From contig JAFTWG010000012.1 in NCBI GenBank assembly GCA_017465405.1, positions 3,692-67,691 on the forward strand: a stretch of 64,000 nucleotides of DNA, read 5' to 3'. This document shows, piece after piece, positions 9,070-63,176 of the stretch. Numbering within the stretch: position 1 is the stretch's first letter; every line of letters starts with the position of its first letter. The DNA comes from Alphaproteobacteria bacterium. Lineage in GTDB: Bacteria > Pseudomonadota > Alphaproteobacteria > RF32 > CAG-239. The position numbers and the translations under genes were made by a program. The notes under the pieces were generated by a model, which saw only the letters and a list, made by a program, of their open reading frames with translations, had not been told where the DNA came from and did no database searches.

Positions 9070-9758
9070 TGTCATTAATAAAGCTCGAAAATATCAAAAA
9101 AAGTTACCCTCTGGGCGATGAAATGTTAGAAATATTAAAAGGTATTTCGTTAGAGATAAATGCCGGAGAATTTGTTGCAATTATGGGACCTTCCGGCTCA
9201 GGAAAATCGACATTGATGAATATTTTGGGCTGTCTTGATAAACCGACTTCCGGAAGATATTTTTTAGATAATAAAGAAGTAGGAACTCTGGAAAATGATG
9301 ATTTAGCAACTATTCGCAATCAGAAAATCGGCTTTGTTTTTCAAGGTTTTAATTTGCTCTCTCGCACCTCGGCACTTGAAAACGTCGAACTTCCGATGGT
9401 CTATGCAGGTGTTCCCGATTTTGAAAGACACAAAAAAGCAATTAAAGCTCTTAAAGCTGTTGGTCTGGAAAAACGTATGGACCATCAACCAAACCAATTA
9501 TCCGGTGGACAACAACAACGTGTTGCAATAGCACGAGCTCTCGTAAACGAAGCTCCGATTATTTTTGCAGATGAACCGACCGGAAATTTAGACACTAAAA
9601 CGAGTATTGAGGTTATGGAACTCTTCACAAAATTTAATAAAGAATTGGGAAGAACCATAATTTTGGTTACCCACGAAGAAGATATTGCGATGTATGCCGA
9701 TAGAATTATCAAAGTTGTTGACGGAGAAATTTTAAGCGATACGAGGAACAAAAAATGA
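9069..9758 (+). CDS. ABC transporter ATP-binding protein, MacB/LolD/FtsE-like
   Basis: Walker A GPSGSGKST, signature LSGGQQQRVAIARAL, Walker B IFADEPTGNLD. The ATGA start overlaps the adaptor's stop. Confidence 0.85.
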   Translation: MSLIKLENIKKSYPLGDEMLEILKGISLEINAGEFVAIMGPSGSGKSTLMNILGCLDKPTSGRYFLDNKEVGTLENDDLATIRNQKIGFVFQGFNLLSRTSALENVELPMVYAGVPDFERHKKAIKALKAVGLEKRMDHQPNQLSGGQQQRVAIARALVNEAPIIFADEPTGNLDTKTSIEVMELFTKFNKELGRTIILVTHEEDIAMYADRIIKVVDGEILSDTRNKK

Positions 9759-10984
9759 TAGAATTAAAAACCATAACCAGTATTGCAATACGAGCCATAA
9801 AAGCTAACAAAATGCGTTCATCACTGACCAGTTTAGGCATTATTATCGGTGTTGCAGCCGTAATCGTGATGTTAGCAATCGGAAACGGAGCTCAAGTTTC
9901 AATTCAAAAAGATATGAAAAGTATGGGTTCAAATTTAATGATGATTCGTTCAGGTTCTTCTACATCAAGCGGGGCTCGGGGCGGGCGTGGATCTCTTCCG
10001 ACAATGAAAGCCGGAGACGGAGATGCTATACAAGAAAAAATAAGTAAAATCAAATTAGCTGCACCGGTTTTAGAACAAACCAATCAAATTGTTTATGGCA
10101 ATGCTAACTGGGCAACATCTACAACCGGAACCGACAATCGATATTTTCAAATAAAAGAATGGGAACTCGATTATGGGCGTAATTTTTCCGAAAGTGATGT
10201 AAAAAATGCCGCAAAAGTTACTATTTTAGGAAAAACCGTAGTAACCGAACTTTTTGGCGATGTTGATCCTATCGGTAAAACAATTCGCATAAAAGGTATG
10301 CCGTTTACCGTCATCGGCGTCCTAGATAAACGTGGCGAAAACGGTATGGGACACGACCAAGATGACGTTGTTTTTATTCCTATTACTACTGCACAGAAAA
10401 AAATTATCGGAATTACCTTTCCCGATCAAGTAAATATGGTAATGTTGCAAGCTGTTGATAGCGAGGCCACCTATTCATCACAAGAAGAAATTACGCAGCT
10501 TTTAAGACAAAGACACAATTTAGGCGAAAATAAAGATAACGATTTTATCATTATGAATATGACCCAAATGCAAGAAATGATGGAAAGCTCAACCCAAATT
10601 ATGACAATTTTACTCGGCTCAATAGCTTCTATTTCTTTGCTTGTCGGCGGTATCGGAATTATGAACATAATGTTGGTATCAGTAACCGAACGCACCCGAG
10701 AAATCGGTATAAGAATGGCTATCGGAGCAAAAGCTTGGGATATCCGATGGCAGTTTTTAATGGAATCCATCGTATTGTCATTAATCGGTGGTTTAGCAGG
10801 AATCATAACCGGGTTGTTGGGTGTTCAGATTATGAAAACAATCACAACCTTTACCCTTATAATTGACTGGGCTTATGTTATAATTCCCTTTGTATTTTCA
10901 GGTATTGTCGGTGTGCTGTTCGGATTTTATCCGGCATATAAAGCTTCTCTCCTAAATCCGATTAATGCCTTAAGATATGAATAA
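9755..10984 (+). CDS. ABC transporter permease, FtsX/MacB-like, with large periplasmic domain
   Basis: 409 aa with an N-terminal TM, a periplasmic MacB_PCD-like region, and three C-terminal TMs with an FtsX-like signature. Confidence 0.8.
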   Translation: MIELKTITSIAIRAIKANKMRSSLTSLGIIIGVAAVIVMLAIGNGAQVSIQKDMKSMGSNLMMIRSGSSTSSGARGGRGSLPTMKAGDGDAIQEKISKIKLAAPVLEQTNQIVYGNANWATSTTGTDNRYFQIKEWELDYGRNFSESDVKNAAKVTILGKTVVTELFGDVDPIGKTIRIKGMPFTVIGVLDKRGENGMGHDQDDVVFIPITTAQKKIIGITFPDQVNMVMLQAVDSEATYSSQEEITQLLRQRHNLGENKDNDFIIMNMTQMQEMMESSTQIMTILLGSIASISLLVGGIGIMNIMLVSVTERTREIGIRMAIGAKAWDIRWQFLMESIVLSLIGGLAGIITGLLGVQIMKTITTFTLIIDWAYVIIPFVFSGIVGVLFGFYPAYKASLLNPINALRYE

Positions 10985-20491: not shown

Positions 20492-21562
20492 ATGAATATT
20501 TTTTTGTCAGAAGAATGGTGGAAGACTGCAACCATTGAAGATATAAGAACAGAACTTAATGACGGAGCCGATGCCCAAAAAAGAAACGACAACGGTATGA
20601 CCCCACTTATGTATGCTGTATCAAGCTGGCAAAACAACAATCCCGAAACAATTAAAATTCTTATAAAACACGGAGCAGATGTCAACGATAAAGACAATGA
20701 CGGAACTACGGCTTTAATGTATGCCTGCAAATATAACAGCAATCCGGAAATTATCAAAACATTGATAGATTGCGGAGCTAATATAAACGAAAGAAACGAA
20801 AGTCGCACAACTCCGTTTATGTATGCTTGTGAATATAACCCTAATCCGGAAATTATTAAAACACTGGCAAAATACGGAGCAGATATTAATGAAACAAACG
20901 AATATGGACGAACTCCGCTTATGTATGCAAGCTCAAGCTGGTGGAATACCAACCCTAGAATTATAAAAACCTTGGTTGAAATGGGTGCTGATGTTAATGC
21001 CAGAGATAAAAATGGTATGACTCCGCTTATGTACGCTTGCGAATATAATGAAAATACCGAAATTATAGAAACTTTAGTAAAATTGGGAGCTAATATTCAC
21101 ACCCAAAACGAATATGGAATTACCCCGTTAATGTATGCTGCAACCAGCGAATGGAACGACAATATCGCAACATTAAAAACTCTGCAAAAATTAGGAGCAG
21201 ATATAAACTCCGCTAACGAAAAGGGAACTACTACCCTTATGTATGCAAGTTATCGTAGTGAAGATACCACAATTTTAACTACATTAATCGAACTAGGTGC
21301 CAATATCAGAAAAAAAGATTATTCCGGAAAAACTGCTCTAATGTATTCTGTCTTGTATAATAACAACATAGAAATAATCAAAACCATAATTAAACTGGGT
21401 GCCGATGTAAATAATCGTGATAATGATGATATGACCGCCCTTTTATATGCAAGTATTGATAATAAAAATCCGGAAATTATCAAAATTTTGATTGAAAACG
21501 GAGCTGATATAACCGCTAAAGATAAACACGGAAAAACAGCTATCGACTACGCCCAAAACTAA
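20492..21562 (+). CDS. ankyrin-repeat protein, ~10 tandem 33-aa ANK repeats, no signal peptide
   Basis: Iterated G(M/T)TPLMYA....NPEIIKTL(I/V)..GADVN..(D/N)..G repeats with 99-bp periodicity at DNA level. Confidence 0.85.
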   Translation: MNIFLSEEWWKTATIEDIRTELNDGADAQKRNDNGMTPLMYAVSSWQNNNPETIKILIKHGADVNDKDNDGTTALMYACKYNSNPEIIKTLIDCGANINERNESRTTPFMYACEYNPNPEIIKTLAKYGADINETNEYGRTPLMYASSSWWNTNPRIIKTLVEMGADVNARDKNGMTPLMYACEYNENTEIIETLVKLGANIHTQNEYGITPLMYAATSEWNDNIATLKTLQKLGADINSANEKGTTTLMYASYRSEDTTILTTLIELGANIRKKDYSGKTALMYSVLYNNNIEIIKTIIKLGADVNNRDNDDMTALLYASIDNKNPEIIKILIENGADITAKDKHGKTAIDYAQN

Positions 21563-21744: not shown

Positions 21745-22368
21745 ATGAAAATCGGAAAAATTAACGTGAACGTTAAAGTAGGTGATGTAACTGCAGAGAA
21801 TGTGGATTGTATCGTAGTACCCCAGTTTAGAAGCGAGGCTTCGTATGGTGGTGTCGGTCGTTCAATCTATGGCGCCGGAATGCGTAGAGGACTTGAGCTC
21901 TATGACGACATTGTCAATGCAAATCCAATCAATTACGGAGATGCAGTCATTACAGAATCAGGACGAGACGGTGTATGGCTTGCCCATGTTGCAACTGCCG
22001 GTGCTAATAAAGACACGCTCTTCAAGGCGGTTTTCCAAGCAGTTTTCAATGCCCTTAAGGTTGCAAGAGCCAAAGGTGTTAAGTCGATTGCTATTCCCGA
22101 GTTAGGAACCGGCGTCATCGGCTCGCTGACACAGGAACAGTCGGCTAAAGCTATCCTCGGCGCCGTAGTGCACTTTACCAGCATTTTTGAGAATGCCGGC
22201 ATTGAAAACATCACTGTCTGCGTATTCCGTGGCTCAACTGCTCCGGCTGAGAAAGTCCTCACCCGTATTTCGGAGATGGATATAAACCTCTTCGAGAAAG
22301 GCGAGAAAGAGTTTGACTTCGAAGCTTGGGCGGTAGAGATGTGCTTGAATGCATCCATGAATCAGTAA
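21745..22368 (+). CDS. macro-domain (ADP-ribose-binding/processing) protein
   Basis: VDCIVVPQF...GGVGRSIYGAG resembles the macro-domain core (D-x-IVNAAN...GGGV..AI). The gene is visibly GC-rich (~50% by eye) relative to the ~33% flanks. Confidence 0.5.
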   Translation: MKIGKINVNVKVGDVTAENVDCIVVPQFRSEASYGGVGRSIYGAGMRRGLELYDDIVNANPINYGDAVITESGRDGVWLAHVATAGANKDTLFKAVFQAVFNALKVARAKGVKSIAIPELGTGVIGSLTQEQSAKAILGAVVHFTSIFENAGIENITVCVFRGSTAPAEKVLTRISEMDINLFEKGEKEFDFEAWAVEMCLNASMNQ

Positions 22369-23511: not shown

Positions 23512-23566
23512 TATTCAACAAAAAACCTCCCCTGCTACAAAACAAGAGAGGTTTAATTTTATATTT

Positions 23567-23926
23567 TTACTTAACACATTTATAAGCAACAACAGCATCA
23601 ACAAGTTTATCATTATTGAATATATTTTTATGATAACTATCTATAACAACAAAATCAGCCCCTTGTTCTGCTGCAACTTCTTTAATTTGATTTACAGAAG
23701 ATTGTAAATCCCAAGCCCACTTACCAAATAGCCATCCTTTATTAAGAGGATTATCAACTAATGCTATTTCCTTATATTTACATGTCGGCATTGTTTTATA
23801 ATAAACAGCAACCTTTTCCGGAGAATTCGGTTCGTGATATATGTTAGGATTACCTAGTCTTACCGTATGAACTTGACAAGCATTTAGAAACAACATCGTT
23901 GCTATTACAAAAAAAGATTTTTTCAT
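23567..23926 (-). CDS. small lipoprotein, 119 aa
   Basis: Lipobox MLFLNAC following a hydrophobic signal region. Confidence 0.55.
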   Translation of the reverse strand: MKKSFFVIATMLFLNACQVHTVRLGNPNIYHEPNSPEKVAVYYKTMPTCKYKEIALVDNPLNKGWLFGKWAWDLQSSVNQIKEVAAEQGADFVVIDSYHKNIFNNDKLVDAVVAYKCVK

Positions 23927-24855: not shown

Positions 24856-24943
24856 TATATTCTCCTATCGCCAAAATACCAAAAAACAAAAAAAAAGCAA
24901 AAGGTTTTAGTGCCTTCTGCTTTCTTTTAATTTCTTTTCAGAC

Positions 24944-25360
24944 TCAAAACAGATACACAAGGGCATCTGAAAGTTTTGAGAAAATAGCTACGGGAGCACC
25001 GCTCACGCGATCCTGCAATTCATAGGTTGACTTTGCCGGAAGATAAACCAAGTAATCAAACTCCGTCTCTCCGAGAAATACTTTCTCAAGAGAACGATTC
25101 TTCTTGTTGGCCTTAACAATATCCGTAAAGTAACCGGACTTGCCCTTTGCGTAAAAAGCGTAGAGCTCTGCACTGTCATTGCGAATACCGTTGATTTGAT
25201 GCGCTAAAGCATAAAACTCCTCGGGGAAGGCTAATTTGCCGGCCATTTTTTTGCGGATACCGTTCAAAATTTTGATATCGGCAAGAATACCATAAGCTAC
25301 ACCCTCGTCTTTTTTGATTCGTTCTACAACAACCTGCAGATCTTTTATTTTCTTGTCCAT
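24944..25360 (-). CDS. SUKH-like (SMI1/KNR4-type) immunity protein, paralog 2
   Basis: 138 aa cytoplasmic protein with the motif FPEEFYALAHQINGIR. Paralogous to the adjacent 137-aa gene: FPDEYFSLVKYSNGLR, shared ...GET(E/S)(F/Y)DYLVY....YEL/YQLRD. Confidence 0.55.
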   Translation of the reverse strand: MDKKIKDLQVVVERIKKDEGVAYGILADIKILNGIRKKMAGKLAFPEEFYALAHQINGIRNDSAELYAFYAKGKSGYFTDIVKANKKNRSLEKVFLGETEFDYLVYLPAKSTYELQDRVSGAPVAIFSKLSDALVYLF

Positions 25361-25447
25361 AACGTAAAATAATTAAGGATTAGTAATCTGAATATCGAGA
25401 TAATACTAATCCTTTTTATTTTTTATGTCAAGCTTTTTTGTCAAATT

Positions 25448-25861
25448 TTACAAAAACATATATTCGACAGCTTGAATTATTGACGAAAACGAAAACACAA
25501 CATCATCTTTTATTTTGTCACGTAATTGATATTGCGAAACACTATTATCATAAACTAAATAGTCATAAGAGGTTTCACCTAACACCGAAACAGTATCGTA
25601 GTCTTCTCTGTCAAGCTCTTCGTTCATACGCACGGCATCTTTGAAATTACGATTATCGTCAAGCGGAAGTATTGCATAAAGCTCCCCCTTATCGCTTCGT
25701 AATCCGTTTGAATATTTTACCAAAGAAAAATACTCATCAGGAAAAACTGCCATTTCTTCTTCAGCCAAATATTTTCTGGCATCAATGTTATGGTGAACAT
25801 CAGCACGTCCGCCCATAACAATCACACCTGAAGCTTTCAGTTTATCAACTAAATCTTTCAA
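25448..25861 (-). CDS. SUKH-like (SMI1/KNR4-type) immunity protein, paralog 1, translationally coupled to the upstream toxin
   Basis: 137 aa. Its start overlaps the stop of the 470-aa gene by 4 nt. Motif VFPDEYFSLVKYSNGLRS. Confidence 0.55.
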   Translation of the reverse strand: MKDLVDKLKASGVIVMGGRADVHHNIDARKYLAEEEMAVFPDEYFSLVKYSNGLRSDKGELYAILPLDDNRNFKDAVRMNEELDREDYDTVSVLGETSYDYLVYDNSVSQYQLRDKIKDDVVFSFSSIIQAVEYMFL

Positions 25862-27270
25862 CGTCCGCCCTCCCTATCTACGGCAAAATCTCTGTAGGTT
25901 TTACGGTCTGTATAATCATTACGACGAGGAGTTGTATAGCTTTCGGTACCGACTTGCAAATATACGGTTTCTTTTTCGGTATCATGCAAATTAACCAAAC
26001 GAAAAGCTGTATCGTCTCTTATGGTATCAACTGCATGCTCAAAACCCTCGTGATTCTGCTCATTCGGAAAATCTACCACTGCTGCAAAATTTTCAAGATC
26101 ATCAATTTTCATAGCATTTTCTTTTAATAACGCTGCATCTTGAACATACATCTTATGGTGAACAGACAATTTTGGATGAGGTTCAGGATATTTATTTACA
26201 TTTAACGTTGTTGTTCCTCTTTCTTTTATTTGCTCAAACAAGTCATTAATATATTCTTTGCATACACCACGACTTTCCAAAACTTTCCTTAGGCTTGACA
26301 TTTTTTCATTGTCTTTTCCAAACTCTTTCCAAAATTTGATACGCGCCCCTTCATCACATTCTTCATTCAATCGGTTAAACTGAATTTTTTGGTTATCTGC
26401 CGGAGCTTGTCCGCCATTTTTCTCTTTATAAAGGATATGTGCAACGTCTGAAATTGTCATACCGTCAACTACTTCTTGCGGAATATGTTGATTTTTTATT
26501 GCCGCTTTCAAATCCGGAATAAGTTTAGACATATTTTCACTTAAAGACATAGCTTGAATTGCAGGATTGCTTTCCCAATCATAGTTTTCCGGTAATTTAC
26601 CACCGGCAATAAGACCGCTTGTATTATTACCATGCGGATCAGCAAATTTTACATATCCGTGAGAATAACCTTGACCACTTTGGGTTGATACTTCCGTCGG
26701 AGTTGTAAACTCTCCCTCAAAAGCAGCTCTAATAACCATTTGAACATTGTGTTCGGTTTTAACATCGGGAATTCTTTCAATTTTACGACCATGAGCTTTT
26801 AAAATTTCATTATAAGCTATTCTTTTTTCTTCTGTAGGATTGTGTCTAAAATCTTCAAGAATAACTCTCACAATTTTTTGTCTCATTGCTTCACATGCTT
26901 CTCTTAAAGCATTCGGACCTTTTCGAGAGTCAAAATTACGAGTGTCCATTTTCAGCTTATGTCTAAGATACGGACTATAATCTCTATTTTTATTAATAAG
27001 TTCTCCGCACATTTTAAAACTGTCGTCGTCGTATGCGTGAACTCGTAAAAAAGAATCTAAAAGCTTGATATCTATAACATCAGTTTCCGAAAAGCCTCCG
27101 GTACCTACTCCTGAACCACCGCTCGGAGGTGTACCTCCCCCTCCACCAGCCATTGCTCTGTGAGCTATGCCAACTGGAGTTGCATTACTCACCGAAACTC
27201 TAATTCTTTGGCGTTTTCTTTTGGGAGCTTCTTCACCACTATTTTCTTTTTTGTAAACATTATCGACCAT
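25858..27270 (-). CDS. putative polymorphic toxin (470 aa). Basic N-terminus, Gly-rich linker, C-terminal effector domain of unrecognised type
   Basis: No signal peptide. KRKRQR patch, then MAGGGGGTPPSGGSGVGTGG linker, then a ~400-aa domain. Two SUKH-like immunity genes follow immediately. Confidence 0.5.
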   Translation of the reverse strand: MVDNVYKKENSGEEAPKRKRQRIRVSVSNATPVGIAHRAMAGGGGGTPPSGGSGVGTGGFSETDVIDIKLLDSFLRVHAYDDDSFKMCGELINKNRDYSPYLRHKLKMDTRNFDSRKGPNALREACEAMRQKIVRVILEDFRHNPTEEKRIAYNEILKAHGRKIERIPDVKTEHNVQMVIRAAFEGEFTTPTEVSTQSGQGYSHGYVKFADPHGNNTSGLIAGGKLPENYDWESNPAIQAMSLSENMSKLIPDLKAAIKNQHIPQEVVDGMTISDVAHILYKEKNGGQAPADNQKIQFNRLNEECDEGARIKFWKEFGKDNEKMSSLRKVLESRGVCKEYINDLFEQIKERGTTTLNVNKYPEPHPKLSVHHKMYVQDAALLKENAMKIDDLENFAAVVDFPNEQNHEGFEHAVDTIRDDTAFRLVNLHDTEKETVYLQVGTESYTTPRRNDYTDRKTYRDFAVDREGGR

Positions 27271-27416
27271 ATCAAACTCACTTTGTTGTCATTTTTTGTC
27301 TAAAATTAGATTAACATAGTTTTTTTAATATTACAATCATAAAAATTAAAAAAATCTTGATTAAATTTTCACAAAAAGCCATAATCGGCTCAACATAACA
27401 AATACAAGGATATAAA

Positions 27417-41032: not shown

Positions 41033-42049
41033 ATGAAAAAAAGTATACTGTTTTTAGGTTTATGTATGTTAGCCTTAAATGCAAATGCTCAAAATTTTGG
41101 CGGAAAAACGAACACTAATATGACGGCAAACGCTAAACCTGAGGAAGAAATGGGATTGATAAAACCCCACCCATTGTTGTCACTTTCAATTCCTGAAAAA
41201 TACAATTTTGATGATCATTTAACCCAAAATATGAAAACACAAAATGGTGAAAGCTTAAATTGTAAAGAACAAAATGAGGTTATTGTTTGCGTGGATAAAA
41301 ATCAAAAACCATTTACAGGTATTGCAAACGGCAGTGATTCTAAATTAAAGCTGACAAGTCAGGCTAATTACAAAAATGGCATGCTTAACGGATTATCTAG
41401 AATTATGTATGATAATAATAAAATTGCTTTCGAAGCTAAATATATCAATGGCAAAAGAAACGGAGTAGCTGTTGCTTATTCAAGGTTGGGACCTAAACAA
41501 AGCGAAACTCACTATAAAAACGGTAAAAAAGATGGACGTTACACTCTGTATTATTTAACAGGCATTAAAACCGTTGAGATGACATTTAAAAATGATAAAG
41601 CAGAAGGAATGGCAAGATCATGGCATCCTAATGGAAAACTACAATCCCAGGCTCTTTTTGTAGATAATTTGATGGAAGGAAATGTAACTTCTTATTATCC
41701 GCACGGAAAAATAGCATATCAAGAAGTATACAAAAACGGAAAAAGAAATGGTATTGTAAAACACTACGAGGAAAATACCGGAAAAATGGATATTGAAGCT
41801 CCTTACATAGATGGAAAAATTCATGGAACGTTGAAAATTTATGATAACGGCAGAATTATTTTTAAAACAGATTATGAAAATGATGTAGCTAATGGAGAAT
41901 ATATCGGATACAATGATAATGGAACAATCTCAATGAGTGCAACTATCGTAAATGGTAAATTAGAAGGAATGGCAAAGGTTTTCGATGACTATGGAAAATT
42001 GGAAAGTATCGAATATTATAAAGACGGAGAAGCAGTAGACCAACCATAA
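41033..42049 (+). CDS. secreted MORN/YwqK-type repeat protein
   Basis: Signal peptide MKKSILFLGLCMLALNANA|Q. At least 8 iterated Y(K/I)NGK(K/R)(D/N)G...Y units. Confidence 0.75.
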   Translation: MKKSILFLGLCMLALNANAQNFGGKTNTNMTANAKPEEEMGLIKPHPLLSLSIPEKYNFDDHLTQNMKTQNGESLNCKEQNEVIVCVDKNQKPFTGIANGSDSKLKLTSQANYKNGMLNGLSRIMYDNNKIAFEAKYINGKRNGVAVAYSRLGPKQSETHYKNGKKDGRYTLYYLTGIKTVEMTFKNDKAEGMARSWHPNGKLQSQALFVDNLMEGNVTSYYPHGKIAYQEVYKNGKRNGIVKHYEENTGKMDIEAPYIDGKIHGTLKIYDNGRIIFKTDYENDVANGEYIGYNDNGTISMSATIVNGKLEGMAKVFDDYGKLESIEYYKDGEAVDQP

Positions 42050-54534: not shown

Positions 54535-54976
54535 TTATTTTATATCATTGTAAAATAAATGATTTTTAGTTTCATAACACGGGCTATGATGTTTAGCCCA
54601 TTTCGGTTTTATCTGTTTGGTATGATAAAAAGTCGCATTATTGGTAAAATCTGACAACTCGCCATCAATCGCTTTTTTTGCTATTTTAATACAACAGACA
54701 AAAGCTTTGTCTTTTTCATTTACCGTCATCAGTTTAGAATAATTTACATCGTTTTTATTCCAACAACTGAATTGTGCTTTTTTCAAACAGGTTGCTTTTA
54801 TATCCGCAACTTTTTGACCTTCTTCAATCCTATATCCCGTAAACCATTTTTTTGCCTTAAAACGATTAATTATCACTCGAGCAACGGCCTCTATCCCCTC
54901 TGCTCCGTCCCCCCTTGCTTCTCCCCACAAAGTTCTGGCCATAATTTGCAAATCACCCCACTCGTCAATTTTCATT
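54535..54976 (-). CDS. endolysin, SleB/CwlJ-type cell-wall hydrolase (Hydrolase_2 family). Track ORF extends to 55026
   Basis: ARTLWGEARGDGAEGIEAVARVIINR family signature. Confidence 0.75.
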
Positions 54977-55264
54977 TTTACCGACCTTTCTTTTGCAATT
55001 AAGCAACAAATCAAGTTTGCTTTCAAAACTGTCGAACTTACTTTCCAGTTTTGCCAACATAATATTTTGGTGATTTTGCATCATCATAATTGAAGCTGTT
55101 TCTTTATCTGTCTTATCCACTCTCTGCATAATCCCTGACAAACGTTCTTCCAAACGTCCTTTCCAAGTTCCGACTTTTACTAAATTCCACAACATTCCCG
55201 CCAAAGCAGAAATTCCGGAAACAGCACCGATCACATTTATAAATTCCATTTGTTTTCTCCACAA
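54965..55264 (-). CDS. holin candidate, 99 aa, single TM
   Basis: TM FINVIGAVSGISALAGMLWNLV followed by a charged tail. Immediately upstream of and overlapping the endolysin. Preceded by a terminator/promoter gap. Confidence 0.55.
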   Translation of the reverse strand: MWRKQMEFINVIGAVSGISALAGMLWNLVKVGTWKGRLEERLSGIMQRVDKTDKETASIMMMQNHQNIMLAKLESKFDSFESKLDLLLNCKRKVGKNEN

Positions 55265-55287
55265 AAAAAAGGGGCATTTCTGCCCCG
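55262..55287 (-). terminator. terminator separating structural genes from the lysis cassette (minus strand)
   Basis: Minus strand GGGGCA-gaaa-TGCCCC followed by TTTTTTTT. Confidence 0.75.
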
Positions 55288-55575
55288 TTATTCTTTCGGA
55301 TAATCTGTTTTTATTTTACTTATTGTATCCGCCCATATATTAGTTTGATTTACTTTATCCCAATAAATCATATCAAGTTGTTCTCCGATATCAGGATACG
55401 CCATTCGACGTTTGGCTTGATAATCGGGTTCTTTTTTTTCTGACTTTTCCGCAAAATAAAAATCTCCTTTCTCTACAATTTTATATTGATTTTGATTACA
55501 CCACTCCGCCCATTTTTGATAAATTTCCGTATTAAACTCTTTTTTTTTCATAACAAAATTTACAAAATCAATCAT
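55288..55575 (-). CDS. hypothetical phage protein, 95 aa
   Basis: ORF in the structural block. Confidence 0.45.
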   Translation of the reverse strand: MIDFVNFVMKKKEFNTEIYQKWAEWCNQNQYKIVEKGDFYFAEKSEKKEPDYQAKRRMAYPDIGEQLDMIYWDKVNQTNIWADTISKIKTDYPKE

Positions 55576-55584
55576 TTTTATCTC

Positions 55585-56307
55585 CTAAAATCCTATTGCC
55601 AACCAATGCCAAGCTGACGTTGCAAAACAATAATATGAAAACCCAGTAGTTTGCAGTTCCCTTATTATCAACGTAGCAACTTGATTTGTGCTGGCTGTCG
55701 AATATCTTGAAGTCGTCAAAGTATACACCGTTGTGTTAAACGGTTGCGGATAACTTATGCTTCCTTCTGTTTCGGTATACACTTTTCCCCATTGAATCAA
55801 AAATCCGTTGGCAAACTTCAAATGGTTAGTTCCTTTTTCAACTAAATTGAAGCCGTTTATAAATTCCGTCGTTGCCACATTGTTTGAAATATCGTCAACC
55901 GCAGGTGTTACTGCTTTTAACAAGCCCAAAAATTCTTTATCCCCCAAAATTGTTTGTCCATCTTCAACAGTTACTATTTTTTCCAATCTGGTATCAATAT
56001 CTGCAATTCCGCTTTCAACCACCGAATTAATATCATTACGCCCTTCTGCCACTATTTCAGCTGCTTCTTGCACATAATTTTTAACTTCCTGTTTTGAATT
56101 TTCTAATTCATCAAACAACAATTTTTCTTTATCTGCCACATAGTCGTCAATTTCAGGTTTAGATTTTTCATCTACATAATATTGAATTTCTTCTTCTCCC
56201 GATTTTATGTAGCTGACATCAACTTCAGTTTCTAAACACACCTCATTTTGAAAAAAAACATCAAAATCTTTTGAGGCATAATTTTCAAAAATATTAATTT
56301 CCGTCAT
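55585..56307 (-). CDS. phage structural protein, 240 aa (possible fibre/receptor-binding protein)
   Basis: Acidic N-terminal half and beta-rich C-terminal half. Position beside the tail-collar gene. Confidence 0.4.
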   Translation of the reverse strand: MTEINIFENYASKDFDVFFQNEVCLETEVDVSYIKSGEEEIQYYVDEKSKPEIDDYVADKEKLLFDELENSKQEVKNYVQEAAEIVAEGRNDINSVVESGIADIDTRLEKIVTVEDGQTILGDKEFLGLLKAVTPAVDDISNNVATTEFINGFNLVEKGTNHLKFANGFLIQWGKVYTETEGSISYPQPFNTTVYTLTTSRYSTASTNQVATLIIRELQTTGFSYYCFATSAWHWLAIGF

Positions 56308-56656
56308 CGCCTACCTCTGCACTAATTTGAAATATTGCATTTGAAGTTAAATCTTGCGGAAAAATTGTATGTACATCTCCATTTTTGAAAATAATTTCAA
56401 TGTTAGCAGCATAAATACCCGCCTCTTGCTCAGAGTGTTTCGGCAAAATTTTAATTCTGGCTTTTCCGTTTACGCCATCAATTATTTCTCCGATAATTTT
56501 GAATTTTAGAATTTTATCCTTATCCTGTACGGTTAAAAGTATTTTGCTTTCACTTATATCAATCGGAGTTCCGTTTTTATTCTTAAATTGCATAACAATA
56601 TCAAAACTGTCACCCTGTCTGACTAAAATACTGTTAGTAGTCATAATTCCTGCCAT
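56294..56656 (-). CDS. hypothetical phage protein, 120 aa
   Basis: Clean ORF whose start overlaps the collar gene's stop. Confidence 0.45.
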   Translation of the reverse strand: MAGIMTTNSILVRQGDSFDIVMQFKNKNGTPIDISESKILLTVQDKDKILKFKIIGEIIDGVNGKARIKILPKHSEQEAGIYAANIEIIFKNGDVHTIFPQDLTSNAIFQISAEVGDDGN

Positions 56657-56657
56657 A

Positions 56658-57431
56658 TCAATCCTCCTTTGCCTTAATAAAGTAATTTAATGCAATATTT
56701 TTCATTCTTATTTCCGAAGAACGCCCATAAACCGAGTTTGATTTCGTTGCACTAAAATTAACGATTGAAAAATTTTTACCGGCATCAAGACCGCCGTCAT
56801 ATTTTCCGGTTACTGAAGATGAACTGAATGCTCCGGTTAATGACGAAGAATATTCTGCCGCACCTCCGGCAAAACGACCGCCGATATTCGGAGCACCATC
56901 TTGTTGATAGCTTCCAAATTTTCGGTCGGCATCCAATCCTCGTCCTTTATCAAGACCTCTGACAACCACACCTCGACAATCGGGAAGGTTAAAAGTAGTT
57001 ACGCCATTTCCCTTACCAAAGGCCGTTCCTATCGCCTCAAATAATATCTCATATTCTTCACGTTCAACTTCACGACCATCGCATAACAACCAGTTTTTAT
57101 GGTCTTTTTGCAAAGCAGAGCATTTGATGTCACCTACACATAATGTTTGATTTATTTTGTCGGTAACATCGTTTTTTGCTTCTTCTAATTGTTGTTTATT
57201 AATTGCATCGTTTACAGAAGTTGCTTTTCCGACATTATTAATTCTGAAACCGCCCAAATTTAAATTTGCTTCCATCGGAACTAAGCCGTTACGTAACAAA
57301 CACTCGTTTAATCCTTGTGCAAAATTATCATCTTCTTCATCATGATGATCACTGACAATATCAATATCGTCTATTCTGTCTTGTTCCCAGTTATGTAAAC
57401 GATAAAATTTTCCTTGTGAATCAAAAGGCAT
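56658..57431 (-). CDS. tail fibre protein with phage tail-collar domain
   Basis: LLCDGREVEREEYEILFEAIGTAFGKGNGVTTFNLPDCRGVVVRG matches the tail-collar (Phage_T4_gp12-like) motif. Confidence 0.7.
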   Translation of the reverse strand: MPFDSQGKFYRLHNWEQDRIDDIDIVSDHHDEEDDNFAQGLNECLLRNGLVPMEANLNLGGFRINNVGKATSVNDAINKQQLEEAKNDVTDKINQTLCVGDIKCSALQKDHKNWLLCDGREVEREEYEILFEAIGTAFGKGNGVTTFNLPDCRGVVVRGLDKGRGLDADRKFGSYQQDGAPNIGGRFAGGAAEYSSSLTGAFSSSSVTGKYDGGLDAGKNFSIVNFSATKSNSVYGRSSEIRMKNIALNYFIKAKED

Positions 57432-57434
57432 TCT

Positions 57435-58496
57435 TTATTCCTCCTCTTTTTGACAAGCAATGTCATATCGAACCGACAAATAGCCGTCTTCGTTTTCAAA
57501 AACCGCTTCAGGTTTAGTTTTAGCAACTTCTTGTGCCAATAAGCCGATTTGCGGCATATTGGAACCGACAAAATTAAAACAATAAACCGTTAATCCGTTA
57601 TCAAGTTTACCGACTGCTTTAACATTTTCTTTTAATCTTGCATCAGAAAACATCGCTGCCACTTGTGCTGCTGTTAATGCAGCATTTAATCCGGCTTGAG
57701 CCTGATCATTAGAATTTATTTGCTCTGCATTGGATATTCTATTATCTATCCCATGCCTTACTCCATAAATATTCATCGCATTGTCATATCCCGAATACGA
57801 ACCTTGTAATTGCGAGAGTATTTGGCTGATATAATTACTTCGAGCATTATTATTGAAATTTCCGGCAGTTATGGAATCAGCTAAACTTTTTGAATAAGCA
57901 TTTTGACCATTTAAAACCGAATTGTATGCAGCTTGGTTATATGCACTATTTTGCGAATTTTGCAGATTTGTCATCGCATTGTTATAGGCATCACTACCAA
58001 CCATAATTCCTTGATTTTGCAATCGGCTTTCCAAGTCATTTGTTTGTTGCGAAAATTGTGGTTGAAGCTTATCAATATACGATTGATATGTTGCTTGCTC
58101 TGCCCTTTTTCTTGCCTCATCAGAACCGTTTACATTAAAAGTATAATTATTTGCATTTGGCAAATTTTGACTCATCATATATGCGTTGTTTACCAAATTT
58201 TTTAAAGTATTATCATAGAGTTGCGTGTCATAATTATTCAAATATTTTAATATATTTCTTTCCGACCCCAACATGGAAGTATTTTGCGATCCCACACCCA
58301 ACATACTCCCGATAGTTTTAAAACCGCTCGACATTTTATTTCTCCTTTTTAGAATTATTGATAAATTTACATTCATTGCGTAACATTCCGAAAACGAACA
58401 CATCTTGTCCGTTATCTCGAAATTGCCGCATTTTTCCTTCTTTTTTAAAACCGCACCTTTTAGCCAAAGATATTGAGGATTTATTTCTTGTATCAA
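57435..58496 (-). CDS. tail fibre/spike protein with C-terminal peptidase-S74 intramolecular chaperone domain
   Basis: C-terminal SDARLKENVKAVGKLDNGLTVYCF...IGLLAQEVAKTKPEAV...GYLSVRYD matches the endosialidase-chaperone autoproteolytic domain. Confidence 0.7.
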   Translation of the reverse strand: MIQEINPQYLWLKGAVLKKKEKCGNFEITDKMCSFSECYAMNVNLSIILKRRNKMSSGFKTIGSMLGVGSQNTSMLGSERNILKYLNNYDTQLYDNTLKNLVNNAYMMSQNLPNANNYTFNVNGSDEARKRAEQATYQSYIDKLQPQFSQQTNDLESRLQNQGIMVGSDAYNNAMTNLQNSQNSAYNQAAYNSVLNGQNAYSKSLADSITAGNFNNNARSNYISQILSQLQGSYSGYDNAMNIYGVRHGIDNRISNAEQINSNDQAQAGLNAALTAAQVAAMFSDARLKENVKAVGKLDNGLTVYCFNFVGSNMPQIGLLAQEVAKTKPEAVFENEDGYLSVRYDIACQKEEE

Positions 58497-58791
58497 TCAG
58501 TGCATTAATACGCCGACATTTAAGAACTTCAAAACCTGTTCCAAAAATTTGTTTAAGAGTTTTTTGTGAACACCAATGTTTGTCATCGGTGTATATATTT
58601 ATCCAAGTTGACGTTTTGTCTTGATAATCACAATAAACCACACCGCCGACAATTTTATTTTGATAAACTATCCCAAGAGCCAAACAATCATTAACATCAT
58701 CAAAATTTAGTCCCAGACCTTTAGCTACATACGTTTTTATATTTCCGCTTTTATCATAAAAAACCTCAGACAATTCCATCTCCCGTTTCAA
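58336..58791 (-). CDS. GNAT-family acetyltransferase embedded in the tail gene block (RimJ/RimL-like)
   Basis: 151 aa with a GNAT fold signature (...LAKRCGFKKEGKMRQF...). The annotated ORF overlaps the fibre gene by 160 nt, so the true start is probably an internal Met. Confidence 0.5.
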   Translation of the reverse strand: MKREMELSEVFYDKSGNIKTYVAKGLGLNFDDVNDCLALGIVYQNKIVGGVVYCDYQDKTSTWINIYTDDKHWCSQKTLKQIFGTGFEVLKCRRINALIDTRNKSSISLAKRCGFKKEGKMRQFRDNGQDVFVFGMLRNECKFINNSKKEK

Positions 58792-60376
58792 AACGAAAAC
58801 CGGTATTGTACCATTCGATTAAATTGCCTTTTGTTTTAGTTTTAAAAACCAGTGACGCCTTAAAACCGGTTGCCGAATTTCCAATCCATTGACTGCGAAT
58901 ATGTCCTCTTAAAGTTTCCCATTTTGTACCAATCGGATTTTTAGTGCTGCTCCACTTATATTTATTCCATTTTGTTCCGTTTGAACCACCCAGATTCTCA
59001 ATATAATCCAATTCATTATCATCAAAATCCATATTGGTATAAATGCTTAAAGCGAACGAGCTCAAGCTTCTTGTTCTCGGATTTAACATTTGAATTTTTT
59101 TCAAACCGGTAATCCCAAGATTACAATAAGCTTGATGTACATTTCCCAAAATCGGCAACCCATTATCGGAATATCCGTCATCAAAACGAAAAACCCCTCC
59201 GCTTGAGCCAAAATAAAGCCTACCGTCAAATAAACACCAACATAGTGAATTTATACCGGTAAAACGGCACCAAGCACCGGAACTGATGTTTATAACATGT
59301 TGTTCAAAACGACTACGTACCGGAACATTAAAAAGCGCATATCCTCCTCGTGGATAAATTATTCCTTGCCAACCGCTCAATTTTTTATTGTCTCTAATGC
59401 GTGATAAAACAAGCCCTCTTATCTTATCACTATATGCAACCTTGCCATTTTGTCCTTCAGGTAAGGAAATAACCGTTGATAAAGGAACATATCCTTCTTC
59501 ACATATGACAATTATGTCTCCGCCATATTGAAAAGTACAATATTCTCCCACCGGCGGAGAAATAAAATATTTTCCTTTTAATTGCCAGTCATCAGAATTT
59601 GACGGATTGCTACCGGAATATACCAGAACCTCTCCCTCTGAGGTTATAAAAACGGTCAAATCATCTATTCCCTGTCCCCCGTCTTGTGTCCAACAAGCAA
59701 TAGCTTTCAAATAACCGCCTTTTGCCGTCAAAAGTGACAAATCGACCTTGTTTAAATTTCCCTGAACTTCCCCAACACCTTCAGAGAACCAATAATTCAG
59801 AGAATTTTTCTCAATAAAAAATAACCGTTGTTTTGAAACGGTTACATCACATAACATTGATTTATCAAGATTATCTCCCTGTAATTCGGTTTCTTGCCAA
59901 ATCCAATTTTCATCACTGTCCTGAAAATAACTCAAAGGTTCATCAACCCCGTTACACATAATTAAACGATTGCGAAATTGAACATAATGCCAACGATTGT
60001 TAAGCAACCCTTCTTTTTCAAGCTTATTATTTGCAGAAGTTGCATCAAATATTTTGCCGTTACCGACTGCAAAAATACGTTTATTCAACGGTGAATGAAA
60101 TGCTATTAATGTTTCAACTTTAATATTTCGTTCGTTTAAGGCATAAATTTTATATCCCCCTCGCAAACAAACTTTTGTTTCCGCCGGATAATAATTATCC
60201 ATTACAATAGCATCATTAGGAGACATATTATCCAATCCGTCTCTTTGATTTAATCCTCCGATTGGAGCCGACAAGATATAATTTTGTGTTCGATTAAGCA
60301 TTCGATTTAACATAAAACACCTCCTCGCTTTCTGCCAAATTATTTCTGCCGCCCAAAAAAATATTTTCACCGGCAA
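58766..60376 (-). CDS. large phage structural protein, 536 aa (tail/baseplate candidate). Start probably at an internal Met (MLNRMLNRTQ)
   Basis: Beta-rich, W/Y/G-rich. No motif I can name. Confidence 0.4.
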   Translation of the reverse strand: MPVKIFFWAAEIIWQKARRCFMLNRMLNRTQNYILSAPIGGLNQRDGLDNMSPNDAIVMDNYYPAETKVCLRGGYKIYALNERNIKVETLIAFHSPLNKRIFAVGNGKIFDATSANNKLEKEGLLNNRWHYVQFRNRLIMCNGVDEPLSYFQDSDENWIWQETELQGDNLDKSMLCDVTVSKQRLFFIEKNSLNYWFSEGVGEVQGNLNKVDLSLLTAKGGYLKAIACWTQDGGQGIDDLTVFITSEGEVLVYSGSNPSNSDDWQLKGKYFISPPVGEYCTFQYGGDIIVICEEGYVPLSTVISLPEGQNGKVAYSDKIRGLVLSRIRDNKKLSGWQGIIYPRGGYALFNVPVRSRFEQHVINISSGAWCRFTGINSLCWCLFDGRLYFGSSGGVFRFDDGYSDNGLPILGNVHQAYCNLGITGLKKIQMLNPRTRSLSSFALSIYTNMDFDDNELDYIENLGGSNGTKWNKYKWSSTKNPIGTKWETLRGHIRSQWIGNSATGFKASLVFKTKTKGNLIEWYNTGFRFETGDGIV

Positions 60377-61043
60377 TACCGGCTCCTAATCTTTTGCGAC
60401 ATTCTTTTTCATATTCATTAAATTCTTCCTGATAAGCTTGTCCGTTGCGAGCCTGCAATCGCCATCTTATAGCCAACTTTACCAAATATTCATCAAACAG
60501 AGGAATATCGCTGTCTTTAGTTATTTCTGTTTTTTCAACAAATAATCCTTTATCAAATGCTACCACCGCTGAACGATATTGAAAAACAATCTTAATTCCG
60601 TCTGGCGGAGGAGTTAAAAAGCGAAACATAGAATTTTGGATTTTAAATTTTATTTTATTGCTCGTATCACACAAAAATTTTTCACGTTGCCATTGTTCCG
60701 GAGTAATTGCTCCGATAACTTTTTCGTTTACATCTTTGATATAAACCGTATTATTCAAAAGCTGAAAAAAATCAGGGCAAAAAGACTTAAGCAGATAATC
60801 TGTTTTTCCTCTTATGGTTTTCAGTTCTCCATCTTTTATCAGCTCTTGCCAATCTCCAAAACGCAATAAACCGTTCAAAGCATCTTTAGCCACACTCAAA
60901 AAAATTTTATCATTTTGACTATTACTTTCAAACAAAGATTGTGGAGCTTGAACACAGGCTAAACTAGCTACGTCTTTGCATATTTCTAATATACTTTTCA
61001 TTGTTATTGCTCCTTGTTGTATTTTGTTGTTGTAACGCTTCAA
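60294..61043 (-). CDS. hypothetical phage protein, 249 aa (start likely internal)
   Basis: ORF overlapping both neighbours. Confidence 0.4.
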   Translation of the reverse strand: MKRYNNKIQQGAITMKSILEICKDVASLACVQAPQSLFESNSQNDKIFLSVAKDALNGLLRFGDWQELIKDGELKTIRGKTDYLLKSFCPDFFQLLNNTVYIKDVNEKVIGAITPEQWQREKFLCDTSNKIKFKIQNSMFRFLTPPPDGIKIVFQYRSAVVAFDKGLFVEKTEITKDSDIPLFDEYLVKLAIRWRLQARNGQAYQEEFNEYEKECRKRLGAGIAGENIFLGGRNNLAESEEVFYVKSNA

Positions 61044-61551
61044 TTTTTGACTCTAGTGTTTTGATTTTTTGAAGATATTGTTGTTCTTTATTTTGCCATT
61101 CGGCCAAACTTAAATTACCTTTAGCCCGTTCAACAAATTTGCGAGCTAAATCACGTTCTTTATTAAGTTGTAAATTTTCGGTCCGTTCATCACCTAAATT
61201 AGCCAAAGCTTCAACCGTAAAAATCCCGCGAAGTTTTAGCCCTGCAATTTCTGCAACATCAAGAAATGCAAAATGCTCTAACGGCGTGCCGTCTTCCACC
61301 TGTTTCTTATTTTGCTTATAACGTTCATATTCAAGCGGAAAGCGTCTTATTTTCTCACTGTCCGCAGGCTGATTAAAAATTTCGGAATTATTATCTTTAA
61401 TTCGTATCTCACAAAAACATTTAAGCTTGAACTTCGGCAAACCGTCAGCACTTAATTCGTCGGTTTTAACAGCCTTATCGTAAAAACGAGCGATTACCCC
61501 GTCTTCTGAGTTTGTATTACGAGTAAACTTTTCAAAAGTTGCAAAATCCAT
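60964..61551 (-). CDS. hypothetical phage protein, 195 aa, coiled-coil C-terminus
   Basis: Clean ORF immediately downstream of the capsid candidate. Confidence 0.45.
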   Translation of the reverse strand: MDFATFEKFTRNTNSEDGVIARFYDKAVKTDELSADGLPKFKLKCFCEIRIKDNNSEIFNQPADSEKIRRFPLEYERYKQNKKQVEDGTPLEHFAFLDVAEIAGLKLRGIFTVEALANLGDERTENLQLNKERDLARKFVERAKGNLSLAEWQNKEQQYLQKIKTLESKIEALQQQNTTRSNNNEKYIRNMQRRS

Positions 61552-61614
61552 TTTATTTCTCCATATAAAAAGGCGGCACCGTTAAAGCACCGCCCTTATT
61601 TATTATTCTAAAAA

Positions 61615-62586
61615 TTATTCGGCATTATTAATTAATACCCCTTGCAGAGCCGCATTAGACATTGTCATATTACCGGCCCATCCGATGATTTTATAAATTG
61701 CATCTTGGTTAACCGACATTCTCTCCCCACCGATTACTTTCATATTGCGATCTTGATGCGAGCGCAGATATAGATAATTGGTATTCAAGAAATACATTCT
61801 ATCTTCCGGACAACAACCGCCCTGTCCTGCATCACAAACAACATCTGCCCCCTTAAAACGTAATGTTTCAAAACCTGCTTCTGCCAATTTGCTGTCGGTA
61901 AATCTTTGTTGAGCAGTTAAAGATTGTTCAAAAAGAGAATATAAATCATTTCCGGTAACAATCAAATCAGGTTTATCGGTTCCACGATTTAATGACATAT
62001 ACATCTTATCCATTGCCGGACGAATTGAATCTATTGTCAATGGGTTAGCAACAGTTGTTGATTTATTACGCCAAAATTCGTTACCGGCAGTTGAACGATC
62101 AATACCTCCTACAACACCGGTTTCCGGAGCATCTGCAATTAAAAGTTTCAAACCGCCGATAGCTTTTCCCCCTGCTGATGTTCCATCTCCATAAACAGCC
62201 TCAGCCATTTTGTTGCTCATCGTTTTAACTGCGTTTTCAATTCTTTTTTCAAACAAATCCATCATCTGAAAATGACCGGAATTTTTGAGCATATCTTCAC
62301 CGGATATGGCAACGGGAACAGCACATAGTTTGAGAGAATATTCTGCTGCAGTAAAAAGTTGTTTGGGAGTATATTCGATTGTATCATAACCGGAATACCA
62401 AGTCATATCACCTTGTCCGTATTCCAGCTCTTCCACAATTTTTGAACCACCGGATATATTGCGACTATGTCCTTTTTCTTGCAATCGCTTCAATAGTGCA
62501 TTGTTGTTTGAAACCACATCTGCCAATTGACCGCTGCGATTTTTCAAAGTAGTTGTAAAAATATCATTATAATCTGAATTTGCCAT
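61615..62586 (-). CDS. putative major capsid protein, 323 aa
   Basis: Positional: follows a scaffold-like gene. Mixed alpha/beta, Gly-rich loops. Assignment by context only. Confidence 0.4.
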   Translation of the reverse strand: MANSDYNDIFTTTLKNRSGQLADVVSNNNALLKRLQEKGHSRNISGGSKIVEELEYGQGDMTWYSGYDTIEYTPKQLFTAAEYSLKLCAVPVAISGEDMLKNSGHFQMMDLFEKRIENAVKTMSNKMAEAVYGDGTSAGGKAIGGLKLLIADAPETGVVGGIDRSTAGNEFWRNKSTTVANPLTIDSIRPAMDKMYMSLNRGTDKPDLIVTGNDLYSLFEQSLTAQQRFTDSKLAEAGFETLRFKGADVVCDAGQGGCCPEDRMYFLNTNYLYLRSHQDRNMKVIGGERMSVNQDAIYKIIGWAGNMTMSNAALQGVLINNAE

Positions 62587-62621
62587 TTTATATTTTCCTC
62601 TAAAAATTAAGTTATTACAAA

Positions 62622-63176
62622 TTAATAATCCAATGCCGCAAATTGACGCTCTAACATTTCTCGGGTTGTCAATTTACCGCTGTCATCACCGCTTTTGCGA
62701 TGACCTTTAACAACAAAAGCCGCATCTTTTGCTGCCTTTGCTTCCTCTGCTTTTGCCAAAATTTTATTATCGCTTTGAACCTTAGCCATAAAATCAGCTC
62801 GCAAAAAACGAACTTCATTAATCAAATTTCCGATTGCCTCAACGCAAAAAGCCAACAATTCATTATTTTGATTTTGCGGAGGACAAAGTTCAATTCCATA
62901 TGAACGAGCTAAAAATTGCAAAGCTCCCGCCGGATTTTTTTCAATTAAATCTTCGGCTTCAATAAGCTTTTCAATCCACTCCTTTACATTTTTAAAACCT
63001 CGCTTATGTCCTTTGCTTTTAAACACCTCATCTAAAAAACGAGGAGCATCTTCCCAAACAAAAACGGCAGCTTGTTCTGAGCTGCCGTTTTGATTTTCAA
63101 ATTCATCTTCCGGTAATTTTCCGGTCATTTGTTTCATTCCATATTCTCCTTTTATAGTTATTGATAAATTCCGCAA
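62622..63176 (-). CDS. putative scaffolding protein, 184 aa
   Basis: Highly charged, helical, Ala/Lys/Glu-rich C-terminus (EEAKAAKDAAF). Located immediately upstream of the capsid candidate. Confidence 0.35.
   Translation of the reverse strand: MRNLSITIKGEYGMKQMTGKLPEDEFENQNGSSEQAAVFVWEDAPRFLDEVFKSKGHKRGFKNVKEWIEKLIEAEDLIEKNPAGALQFLARSYGIELCPPQNQNNELLAFCVEAIGNLINEVRFLRADFMAKVQSDNKILAKAEEAKAAKDAAFVVKGHRKSGDDSGKLTTREMLERQFAALDY

Follow-up and report, generated by a model that had tools for sequence, protein, structure and literature searches.

The 64,000-nucleotide (nt) stretch of Alphaproteobacteria bacterium DNA analyzed here (GTDB lineage Bacteria; Pseudomonadota; Alphaproteobacteria; RF32; CAG-239; GenBank assembly GCA_017465405.1, contig JAFTWG010000012.1, positions 3,692 to 67,691 of the forward strand), called the window below, carries a cassette of three minus-strand open reading frames (ORFs) between the tRNA-modification genes mnmA and queH, at the coordinates given in a preliminary description that was made from the sequence alone. 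The cassette encodes a large protein of 470 amino acids (aa) and two small proteins of 137 and 138 aa, referred to here as small protein 1 and small protein 2. We consider it probable that the locus is a polymorphic toxin-immunity cassette composed of a divergent colicin-type HNH DNase toxin, a SUKH immunity protein, and an accessory SUKH protein, and the large protein is called the toxin on that understanding. The earlier reading, of a toxin followed by two SUKH-like immunity paralogs, is thereby supported and made more specific.

The two neighbors named in the preliminary description were recovered as QueH (Pfam, E = 2.6e-54) and MnmA (NCBIfam, E = 8.8e-117), and the sequences APKRKRQRIRVS and RAMAGGGGGTPPSGGSGVGTGGFS were both found within the 470-aa ORF. 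The reported overlap of the toxin stop codon with the start of the 137-aa ORF was also found: it spans 4 nt (cgTTGAaa), the TGA of the toxin gene running into the TTG start of the gene for small protein 1, which is preceded by the ribosome-binding site AGGGAGGG. Comparison with the orthologs at the related locus L005 gave ratios of nonsynonymous to synonymous substitution rates (dN/dS) of 0.16 for the toxin, 0.05 for small protein 1, and 0.16 for small protein 2. Because of these ratios, and because the three-gene order recurs in relatives, all three ORFs are taken to be real genes under purifying selection and not chance ORFs. The order kept across species is mnmA, toxin, small protein 1, small protein 2, in some cases a Macro-domain gene, and queH. 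No further ORF was found inside the cassette, and the window holds no extra copy of the toxin or immunity genes.

The 470-aa protein matched nothing in Pfam, NCBIfam, PADLOC, or PHROGs; a match to a housekeeping enzyme, which would have spoken against a toxin, did not appear in any curated family. Its family comprises 10 close clusters and, at 50% identity, 34 clusters among 1.84 billion proteins. Those members that a source names are called "hypothetical protein" and come mostly from Alphaproteobacteria metagenome-assembled genomes (MAGs); the organisms are gut associated. A homolog search with a 33-sequence profile returned the close set and P0040 only. Searches of plasmids and phages by tblastn gave no match, viral contigs gave nothing, and JGI metagenomes contained two close loci only. 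Across 33 family representatives, R181, D275, H371, and H372 are invariant, and N154, F184, F313, N394, H412, and D415 are conserved in at least 90%. The preliminary description had seen a C-terminal domain of about 400 aa; a region of that extent is present, but it is a composite of helical, middle, and HNH parts and not a single domain. An AlphaFold2 (AF2) model of the toxin, built from an 11-sequence alignment, had a predicted local distance difference test score (pLDDT) of 47 overall and was confident only for aa 60 to 165. Foldseek searches with this model returned only noise, the helical region having no meaningful structural match, and the middle region (aa 166 to 299) matched no solved structure or Pfam family.

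The resemblance to known nucleases lies in the C-terminal third of the toxin, where the motifs of aa 300 to 415 occur in the order FWKEFGKD, SVHHK, N394, H407, and H412. The colicin E7 (ColE7) DNase query sequence was first checked against 1MZ8_B; hhalign then aligned it with the full family profile at 85% and with a C-terminal sub-profile at 90.9% (E = 1.1e-6). The alignment pairs FWKEFGKD with FWEEVSKD of ColE7, H371/H372 with H544/H545, and N394 with N560, and in its extended form H407/H412 stand opposite H569/H573. When the family profile was compared with PDB, it matched the DNase chains of pyocin S2, colicin E7, and AP41 (E = 0.03 to 1.2, aligned at HHK), the matches to pyocin S2 and colicin E7 having E values of 0.03 to 0.1. 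Below threshold, the Pfam model Col-Pyo_DNase was matched by the distant members P0040, P0036, and P0035 (E = 7.7e-4, 0.0044, and 0.017; cut-off, 27 bits) and the Pfam model HNH by 4 family members. Since the ColE7 alignment pairs both the FW.E..KD motif and the H-N-H residues, we read aa 300 to 415 as a divergent colicin-type His-Me finger DNase-like region, and it is a nuclease, among the candidate toxin classes listed in the preliminary description, to which the alignment points.

The two small proteins are paralogs (34% identity, E = 1e-19) and carry the motifs FPDEYFSLVKYSNGLR and FPEEFYALAHQINGIR, as had been stated when they were first likened to SUKH/SMI1-KNR4 proteins. Assignment to the SUKH fold rests on structure because the sequence scores alone are below threshold. 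The AF2 model of small protein 1, built from a 33-sequence alignment, had a pLDDT of 93 and a predicted template modeling (TM) score of 0.88, and in a Foldseek search of PDB it matched 2ICG, 3D5P, 2PRV, and 2PAG with a probability of 1.00 and TM scores of 0.64 to 0.74; the match next in order had a probability of 0.07, and beyond these four none exceeded 0.21. All four are classic SUKH/SMI1-KNR4 structures, with 2PRV, 2ICG, and 3D5P among the references for the fold (PMC3113570, PMC3482391). The predicted structure confirms that small protein 1, of which small protein 2 is a paralog, has the SUKH fold. By sequence, both are close relatives and not formal members of the NCBIfam YrhA family NF038335 (cut-off, 55 bits), for which small protein 1 scored 51.4 bits (E = 1e-13) and small protein 2 scored 38.9 bits (E = 7.6e-10). 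Small protein 1 also scored below threshold against the Pfam families SUKH_6 (17.4 bits; cut-off, 27; E = 0.0065) and SMI1_KNR4 (14.5 bits; cut-off, 25.4; E = 0.055), and small protein 2 matched none of the Pfam SUKH families. SUKH_6 was matched by 4 of 9 small-protein relatives (best E = 0.0014), and a profile of the nine relatives matched nothing among PDB sequences. Nuclease inhibitors are usually acidic; small protein 1 has an isoelectric point (pI) of 4.5, and its orthologs are all acidic (pI 4.2 to 5.5), while small protein 2 has a pI of 9.1 and orthologs that span pI 4.8 to 9.1. At every locus examined, the gene for small protein 1 lies directly downstream of a toxin homolog and in the same orientation.

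The strongest new evidence comes from the loci L013/L014, which were found via the small protein P0065 and belong to a genome of the window's own species: the flanking proteins are 97 to 100% identical to those of the window (MnmA, 99.2%; QueH, 98.9%; PgsA, 100%; ApbE, 99.7%), and the flanks of the cassette in the window and in L013 share 98.1 to 98.6% nt identity (blastn). Between these flanks stands a different allele. The L013 toxin has 499 aa and is about 40% identical to that of the window over residues 134 to 463, with no match at the N terminus; small protein 1 is 59% identical in aa and its gene 70% identical in nt, and this gene alone within the replaced segment aligns in blastn; the gene for small protein 2 is replaced by one for a 209-aa Macro-domain protein. 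The alignment of the near-identical flanks stops at 27254, past the first six codons of the toxin gene (M-x-x-N-V-Y), and restarts at 24903, within a terminator hairpin whose stem is particular to each allele and is followed by a common T tract. In the L005 pair, synonymous divergence (dS) is 0.48 to 0.98 for the flanking core genes, 0.26 for the toxin, and 0.20 for small protein 2, which suggests a recent exchange of the cassette between lineages. The allele swap in L013/L014 and the dS contrast in L005 indicate that the genealogy of the cassette is decoupled from that of the chromosome. Judged from these alignments, the coexistence of divergent, matched alleles in one species has the form expected of a toxin-immunity discrimination system. 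Intraspecific toxin variation with a matched downstream immunity gene, as between the window and L013/L014, is a property of polymorphic toxins that the locus shares; a known trafficking domain, another such property, was found in 0 of the 33 representatives, and the alleles have only the first 6 codons in common.

These findings bear on the possibility that the large protein is a nutritional or housekeeping nuclease with protective inhibitors, comparable to NucA/NuiA or barnase/barstar, and not a weapon. Such a nuclease would fit a gene order between core genes that is conserved across species, as well as a divergence that resembles that of the core neighbors and bears the mark of purifying selection. 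It would not lead one to expect toxin alleles of about 40% identity in one species at 98% flank identity, nor a cassette dS that is low relative to the flanks and suggests exchange between lineages; a signal peptide for extracellular scavenging is absent, and the family is very rare. The matched divergent alleles and the decoupled genealogy therefore make the case against a housekeeping nuclease, which we hold to be highly improbable.

A second strain-variable segment (23557 to 23917; L013 counterpart, 9296 to 9883) lies 1 kb from the cassette. There, a gene for a 119-aa lipoprotein (23567 to 23926, minus strand) is exchanged in L013 for a gene for a 192-aa outer membrane protein (OMP) beta-barrel between flanks that are 98% identical, and this swap may be a surface-protein polymorphism, such as that of a phage or bacteriocin receptor.

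A toxin gene followed by a SUKH gene was found in at least four genomic contexts. At L008, the toxin homolog adjoins metK and is accompanied by two SUKH genes; at L009, the toxin and a directly downstream SUKH gene stand in another context; and at L016/L017 there is one SUKH gene, upstream of which a 477-aa protein matches the toxin family at 98.9%. Because the pair recurs in these other contexts, the toxin and small protein 1 form the core of the system. Small protein 2 is accessory: allele type B lacks it and has a Macro gene in its position. A Macro-domain paralog is the third cassette gene in L013/14, L018/19, and L020 and the fourth in L001-3, either substituting for the second SUKH gene or following it. 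The cassette Macro paralogs are 32 to 34% identical to a Macro protein encoded elsewhere in the window (21745 to 22368, plus strand); the local GC content of that gene is 48%, against about 33%. A role for small protein 2 as immunity to the middle region of the toxin was considered and found unlikely, as alleles without small protein 2 retain that region. At L015 (5576 to 6998), on one metagenome contig, two ORFs of 167 and 313 aa are called for the toxin homolog and the downstream SUKH gene is intact, the counterpart in L016/L017 (5565 to 6998) being a single 477-aa protein; either the toxin is decaying there with its immunity gene retained, or the assembly is in error.

We propose that the 470-aa protein acts as a stand-alone toxin whose C-terminal third (about aa 300 to 415) would be a deeply divergent colicin/pyocin-type H-N-H DNase, in which H371/H372, N394, H407, and H412 would serve to bind a divalent metal and to cleave the DNA of a target cell. 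Small protein 1, an acidic SUKH protein whose translation is coupled to that of the toxin on the same mRNA, would bind and block the nuclease inside the producer. Small protein 2 is an older SUKH paralog that has a promoter-like site of its own, and it might provide a second immunity function or protection from related non-self alleles. With different alleles occupying one mnmA-queH site among conspecific strains, the cassette could in this way mediate discrimination between kin and non-kin.

The DNA between the two small-protein genes is consistent with separate control of small protein 2. It contains the sequence TTGACA-17-TAGTAT, with 10 of 12 matches in the promoter scan, and lineages whose proteins share only about 60% identity all have the same -35 hexamer. 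This promoter-like site is overlapped by an inverted repeat with the arms AGGATTAGTA and TACTAATCCT, and in L001 the pairing of the 10-bp stem is kept through two compensatory changes. The repeat could act as an operator, form a hairpin in the mRNA, or terminate transcription weakly. The arrangement suggests either that small protein 2 is expressed independently, perhaps under regulation, or that transcription ends in part behind the gene for small protein 1. The features of the cassette are collected in Table 1.

Table 1. Coordinates of the cassette, its genes, the regions of the toxin, and the Macro-domain genes in related cassettes (positions refer to the window unless a locus is named)
Feature	Position	Strand	Basis and remarks
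Toxin gene, 470 aa	25858-27270	minus	ORF list; stand-alone; 10 close homologs; dN/dS 0.16
N-terminal tail, aa 1-58	27097-27270	minus	M-x-D-N-V-Y start, KRKRQRI (R-x-R-I), Gly-rich linker; pLDDT 24-41
Helical region, aa 60-165	26776-27093	minus	AF2 model all helices, pLDDT about 80-87
Conserved middle region, aa 166-299	26374-26775	minus	R181/D275 invariant, F184 near-invariant
Colicin/pyocin-type HNH (His-Me finger) DNase-like region, aa 300-415	26026-26373	minus	Profile alignments
Small protein 1 gene, 137 aa	25448-25861	minus	Predicted cognate immunity protein; translationally coupled to toxin
Intergenic region	25361-25447	minus	TTGACA-17-TAGTAT promoter-like site and 10-bp inverted repeat ahead of small protein 2
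Small protein 2 gene, 138 aa	24944-25360	minus	SUKH paralog, accessory
Terminator-like hairpin and T-run	24889-24928	minus	Terminator scan; after small protein 2; holds right cassette boundary
Variable cassette	24904-27253	minus	Divergent allele in conspecific genome; sharp breakpoints, inspected in alignments
Macro-domain genes	L013 7520-8149; L018 5522-6145; L020 1746-2297; L001 10459-11085		In cassette

Elsewhere in the window, a prophage-like block (54535 to 63961, minus strand) lies 27 kb from the cassette and shows no sign of linkage to it. Its PHROG matches include endolysin, tail fiber, tail collar, a 536-aa amidase-like protein, a tail protein, the major head protein (E = 1.9e-107), and a portal fragment reaching the window end. 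The window also encodes a 356-aa protein that consists almost entirely of ankyrin repeats (20492 to 21562, plus strand) and a MORN-repeat protein (41033 to 42049, plus strand). Ankyrin and MORN repeats are often tied to interaction with eukaryotic cells, and the two proteins are unusual for a presumed free-living gut bacterium.

The nuclease might alternatively act within the cell that makes it, as part of an intracellular toxin-antitoxin or abortive-infection module in which a SUKH-held nuclease is freed by phage or stress and the mnmA-queH site is a defense hotspot. Such a module would be in keeping with the finding that the 33 family representatives have no signal peptide or known trafficking domain, with the absence of secretion genes nearby, and with chromosomal, translationally coupled genes; strain-level replacement at a fixed site is also typical of defense islands, and a prophage is present within the same window. 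We know of no report, however, of SUKH proteins as antitoxins of defense systems, and none of the three cassette proteins matched PADLOC at E values of up to 1. The alleles are divergent versions of one system and not unrelated systems, and a conserved linear motif in a disordered N-terminal tail would have no obvious use in an intracellular module. SUKH proteins are, moreover, documented as immunity to exported toxins (PMC3113570, PMC3482391). We consider the intracellular module unlikely.

The toxin had been described as a stand-alone protein without a signal peptide and with a basic N terminus, and in agreement with this no hydrophobic signal-like stretch was found in its first 60 residues and the basic KRKRQRI motif is present. 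The Gly-rich linker, also described, is present in the window protein but is not a feature of the family: the Gly run is limited to the window protein and its closest relatives, P0001 and P0002, and other orthologs have a different low-complexity linker. According to the AF2 model, aa 1 to 58 are probably disordered. The motif R-x-R-[IVFML] occurs within the first 50 aa of 18 of the 33 representatives (twice in P0017), compared with 3 of 281 other segments of 50 aa, and the M-x-D-N-V-Y start of the toxin falls in the conserved flank of the cassette. The tail with its NVY and R-x-R-I motifs may be regarded as the best candidate for an export/import signal, in analogy to colicins, whose translocation domains are unstructured. 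A conserved C-terminal "GGR/GRE" tail was also considered as a secretion signal and rejected, since the codons of this tail also hold the ribosome-binding site for the coupled gene downstream, which accounts for the conservation of "GGR." It is a more speculative matter whether the tail does act as such an export/import signal, of a type not described before, whether the toxin belongs to a new colicin-like, secretion-system-independent class of bacteriocins in uncultured gut Alphaproteobacteria, and whether the Macro gene and the second SUKH gene mark a second, so far unrecognized activity in the middle region (R181, D275); we regard these extensions of the proposal as tentative and rather doubtful.

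The same basic segment could be read differently, since KRKRQRI resembles a classical monopartite nuclear localization signal. Were PKRKRQRI such a signal, the nuclease would enter a eukaryotic nucleus as a host-directed genotoxin, and the SUKH proteins would protect the bacterium only before export. The conservation of the basic motif, the ankyrin- and MORN-repeat proteins in the window, and the gut association of the organisms would accord with an effector of this kind. The motif is missing, however, in about half of the toxin family, no host-delivery secretion system or sign of an intracellular lifestyle was seen, and the intraspecific swap of matched toxin/immunity alleles fits discrimination of bacterium against bacterium and not a host effector. 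We give a host-directed genotoxin only a slight chance of being correct.

Several observations weigh against the interpretation of the locus as a DNase toxin-immunity cassette. The window protein itself matches no HNH or colicin model in Pfam, and all Pfam matches of its family fall under the gathering thresholds. The AF2 pLDDT of aa 300 to 415 is below 50, so that the beta-beta-alpha-metal fold is not recoverable from the model, and this DNase-like region is acidic (pI 5.4), while DNase toxins are typically basic. No secretion domain was found in the 33 family representatives and no lysis gene at the cassette, the part of the window whose genes were scanned showed no secretion-system gene, and no LexA-like box with up to two mismatches lies upstream of the toxin (27271 to 27416). 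In comparisons of different species, the cassette has diverged about as fast as core neighbors such as DsbD and ApbE (57 to 63% identity for the toxin, 66 to 77% for small protein 1, and 59 to 61% for small protein 2, compared with 55% for DsbD and 62% for ApbE), and in this it falls short of the hypervariability of many polymorphic toxins. Nor does the interpretation explain what small protein 2 and the recurrent Macro gene do.

Taken as a toxin-immunity cassette, the locus gives a proposed function to a protein family left blank by every curated library and would represent a strain-discriminating weapon in a gut alphaproteobacterial lineage known from MAGs only. The two alleles in one species offer a ready natural experiment on toxin-immunity specificity, and the mnmA-queH allele could serve as a strain marker in gut metagenomes. 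Colicin-type DNases would be extended to a new architecture with SUKH immunity, and a new delivery signal may lie in the conserved N-terminal motifs.

The systems to which the cassette can be compared each share part of its organization. With colicins E7/E9 and pyocins S2/AP41 (PF21431), the toxin shows profile homology over about 73 to 118 columns that includes FW.E..KD and the HH/N/H/H residues, and like them it is a stand-alone protein that lacks a signal peptide, has a low-complexity N-terminal tail, and is followed immediately by an immunity gene. It differs in the spacing of the motif elements, between which there are insertions (22 residues from H372 to N394, versus 15 in ColE7), in that no family member reaches the Pfam threshold and the DNase-like region is acidic, and in its immunity protein, a SUKH protein here versus the four-helix Im protein. 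Of the features of colicin operons, a lysis gene, an SOS box, and a plasmid copy were not found, and no Tol/Ton box was recognizable by eye.

Polymorphic toxin systems associated with SUKH proteins were described by Zhang, Iyer and Aravind in 2011 (PMC3113570), an example being YobL-YobK of B. subtilis. The cassette resembles systems of the YobL-YobK type in the SUKH fold itself (2PRV is YobK) and in tandem chromosomal SUKH paralogs that stand beside an HNH-fold nuclease and vary among strains. In typical systems of this kind, however, the N-terminal trafficking domain is constant and the C-terminal tip of the toxin is exchanged, whereas here the exchange takes in the whole ORF past codon 6 along with the immunity gene. 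Another SUKH-associated toxin is Tox-REHH/RehhI, a recently recognized, deeply divergent HNH DNase toxin missed by family databases (bioRxiv 10.64898/2026.09.22.753552); some of its homologs are paired with SUKH immunity proteins, and its neutralization is by an acidic surface (bioRxiv 10.64898/2026.09.22.753552). Its residues (R46, H52-E53, H102, and H121) differ from the HH...N...H...H arrangement found here, it occurs as a C-terminal tip on PAAR/Rhs, LXG, and similar carriers, and no sequence relationship to it was detected; on the grounds of motif and architecture, it was rejected as a relative of the toxin.

The closest parallel in gene arrangement comes from E. coli K-12, in which yhhZ ("putative endonuclease") is followed by yrhA with a 4-nt overlap. 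YhhZ has the Pfam T6SS_HCP domain (T6SS, type VI secretion system) and a sub-threshold HNH match, and its motif NVHHKLSLDDGGTNDFENLVLI aligns with that of the toxin family (HHK...D.G..ND..N..V). Hcp fused to an HNH-DNase is a described class of T6SS effector, Hcp-ET1 (PMC6099711). The cassette shares with YhhZ-YrhA the 4-nt stop overlap, and YrhA is the best sequence family of the small proteins; it differs in that the Hcp and T6SS-linked domains are absent from the window protein and its family (Pfam), in that there are two SUKH paralogs and not one, and in the large, family-specific N-terminal and middle regions of the toxin. The combination of Tox-ColE7 with Imm-SUKH was listed by Zhang et al. 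in 2012, including in alphaproteobacteria (PMC3482391). Given the YhhZ-YrhA pair, the Hcp-HNH class, and this documented Tox-ColE7/Imm-SUKH pairing, the pairing of colicin-type HNH toxins with SUKH immunity is an established kind of system; what is new is a divergent family of stand-alone toxins, the N-terminal module of that family, the lineage in which it occurs, and the link to Macro-domain genes.

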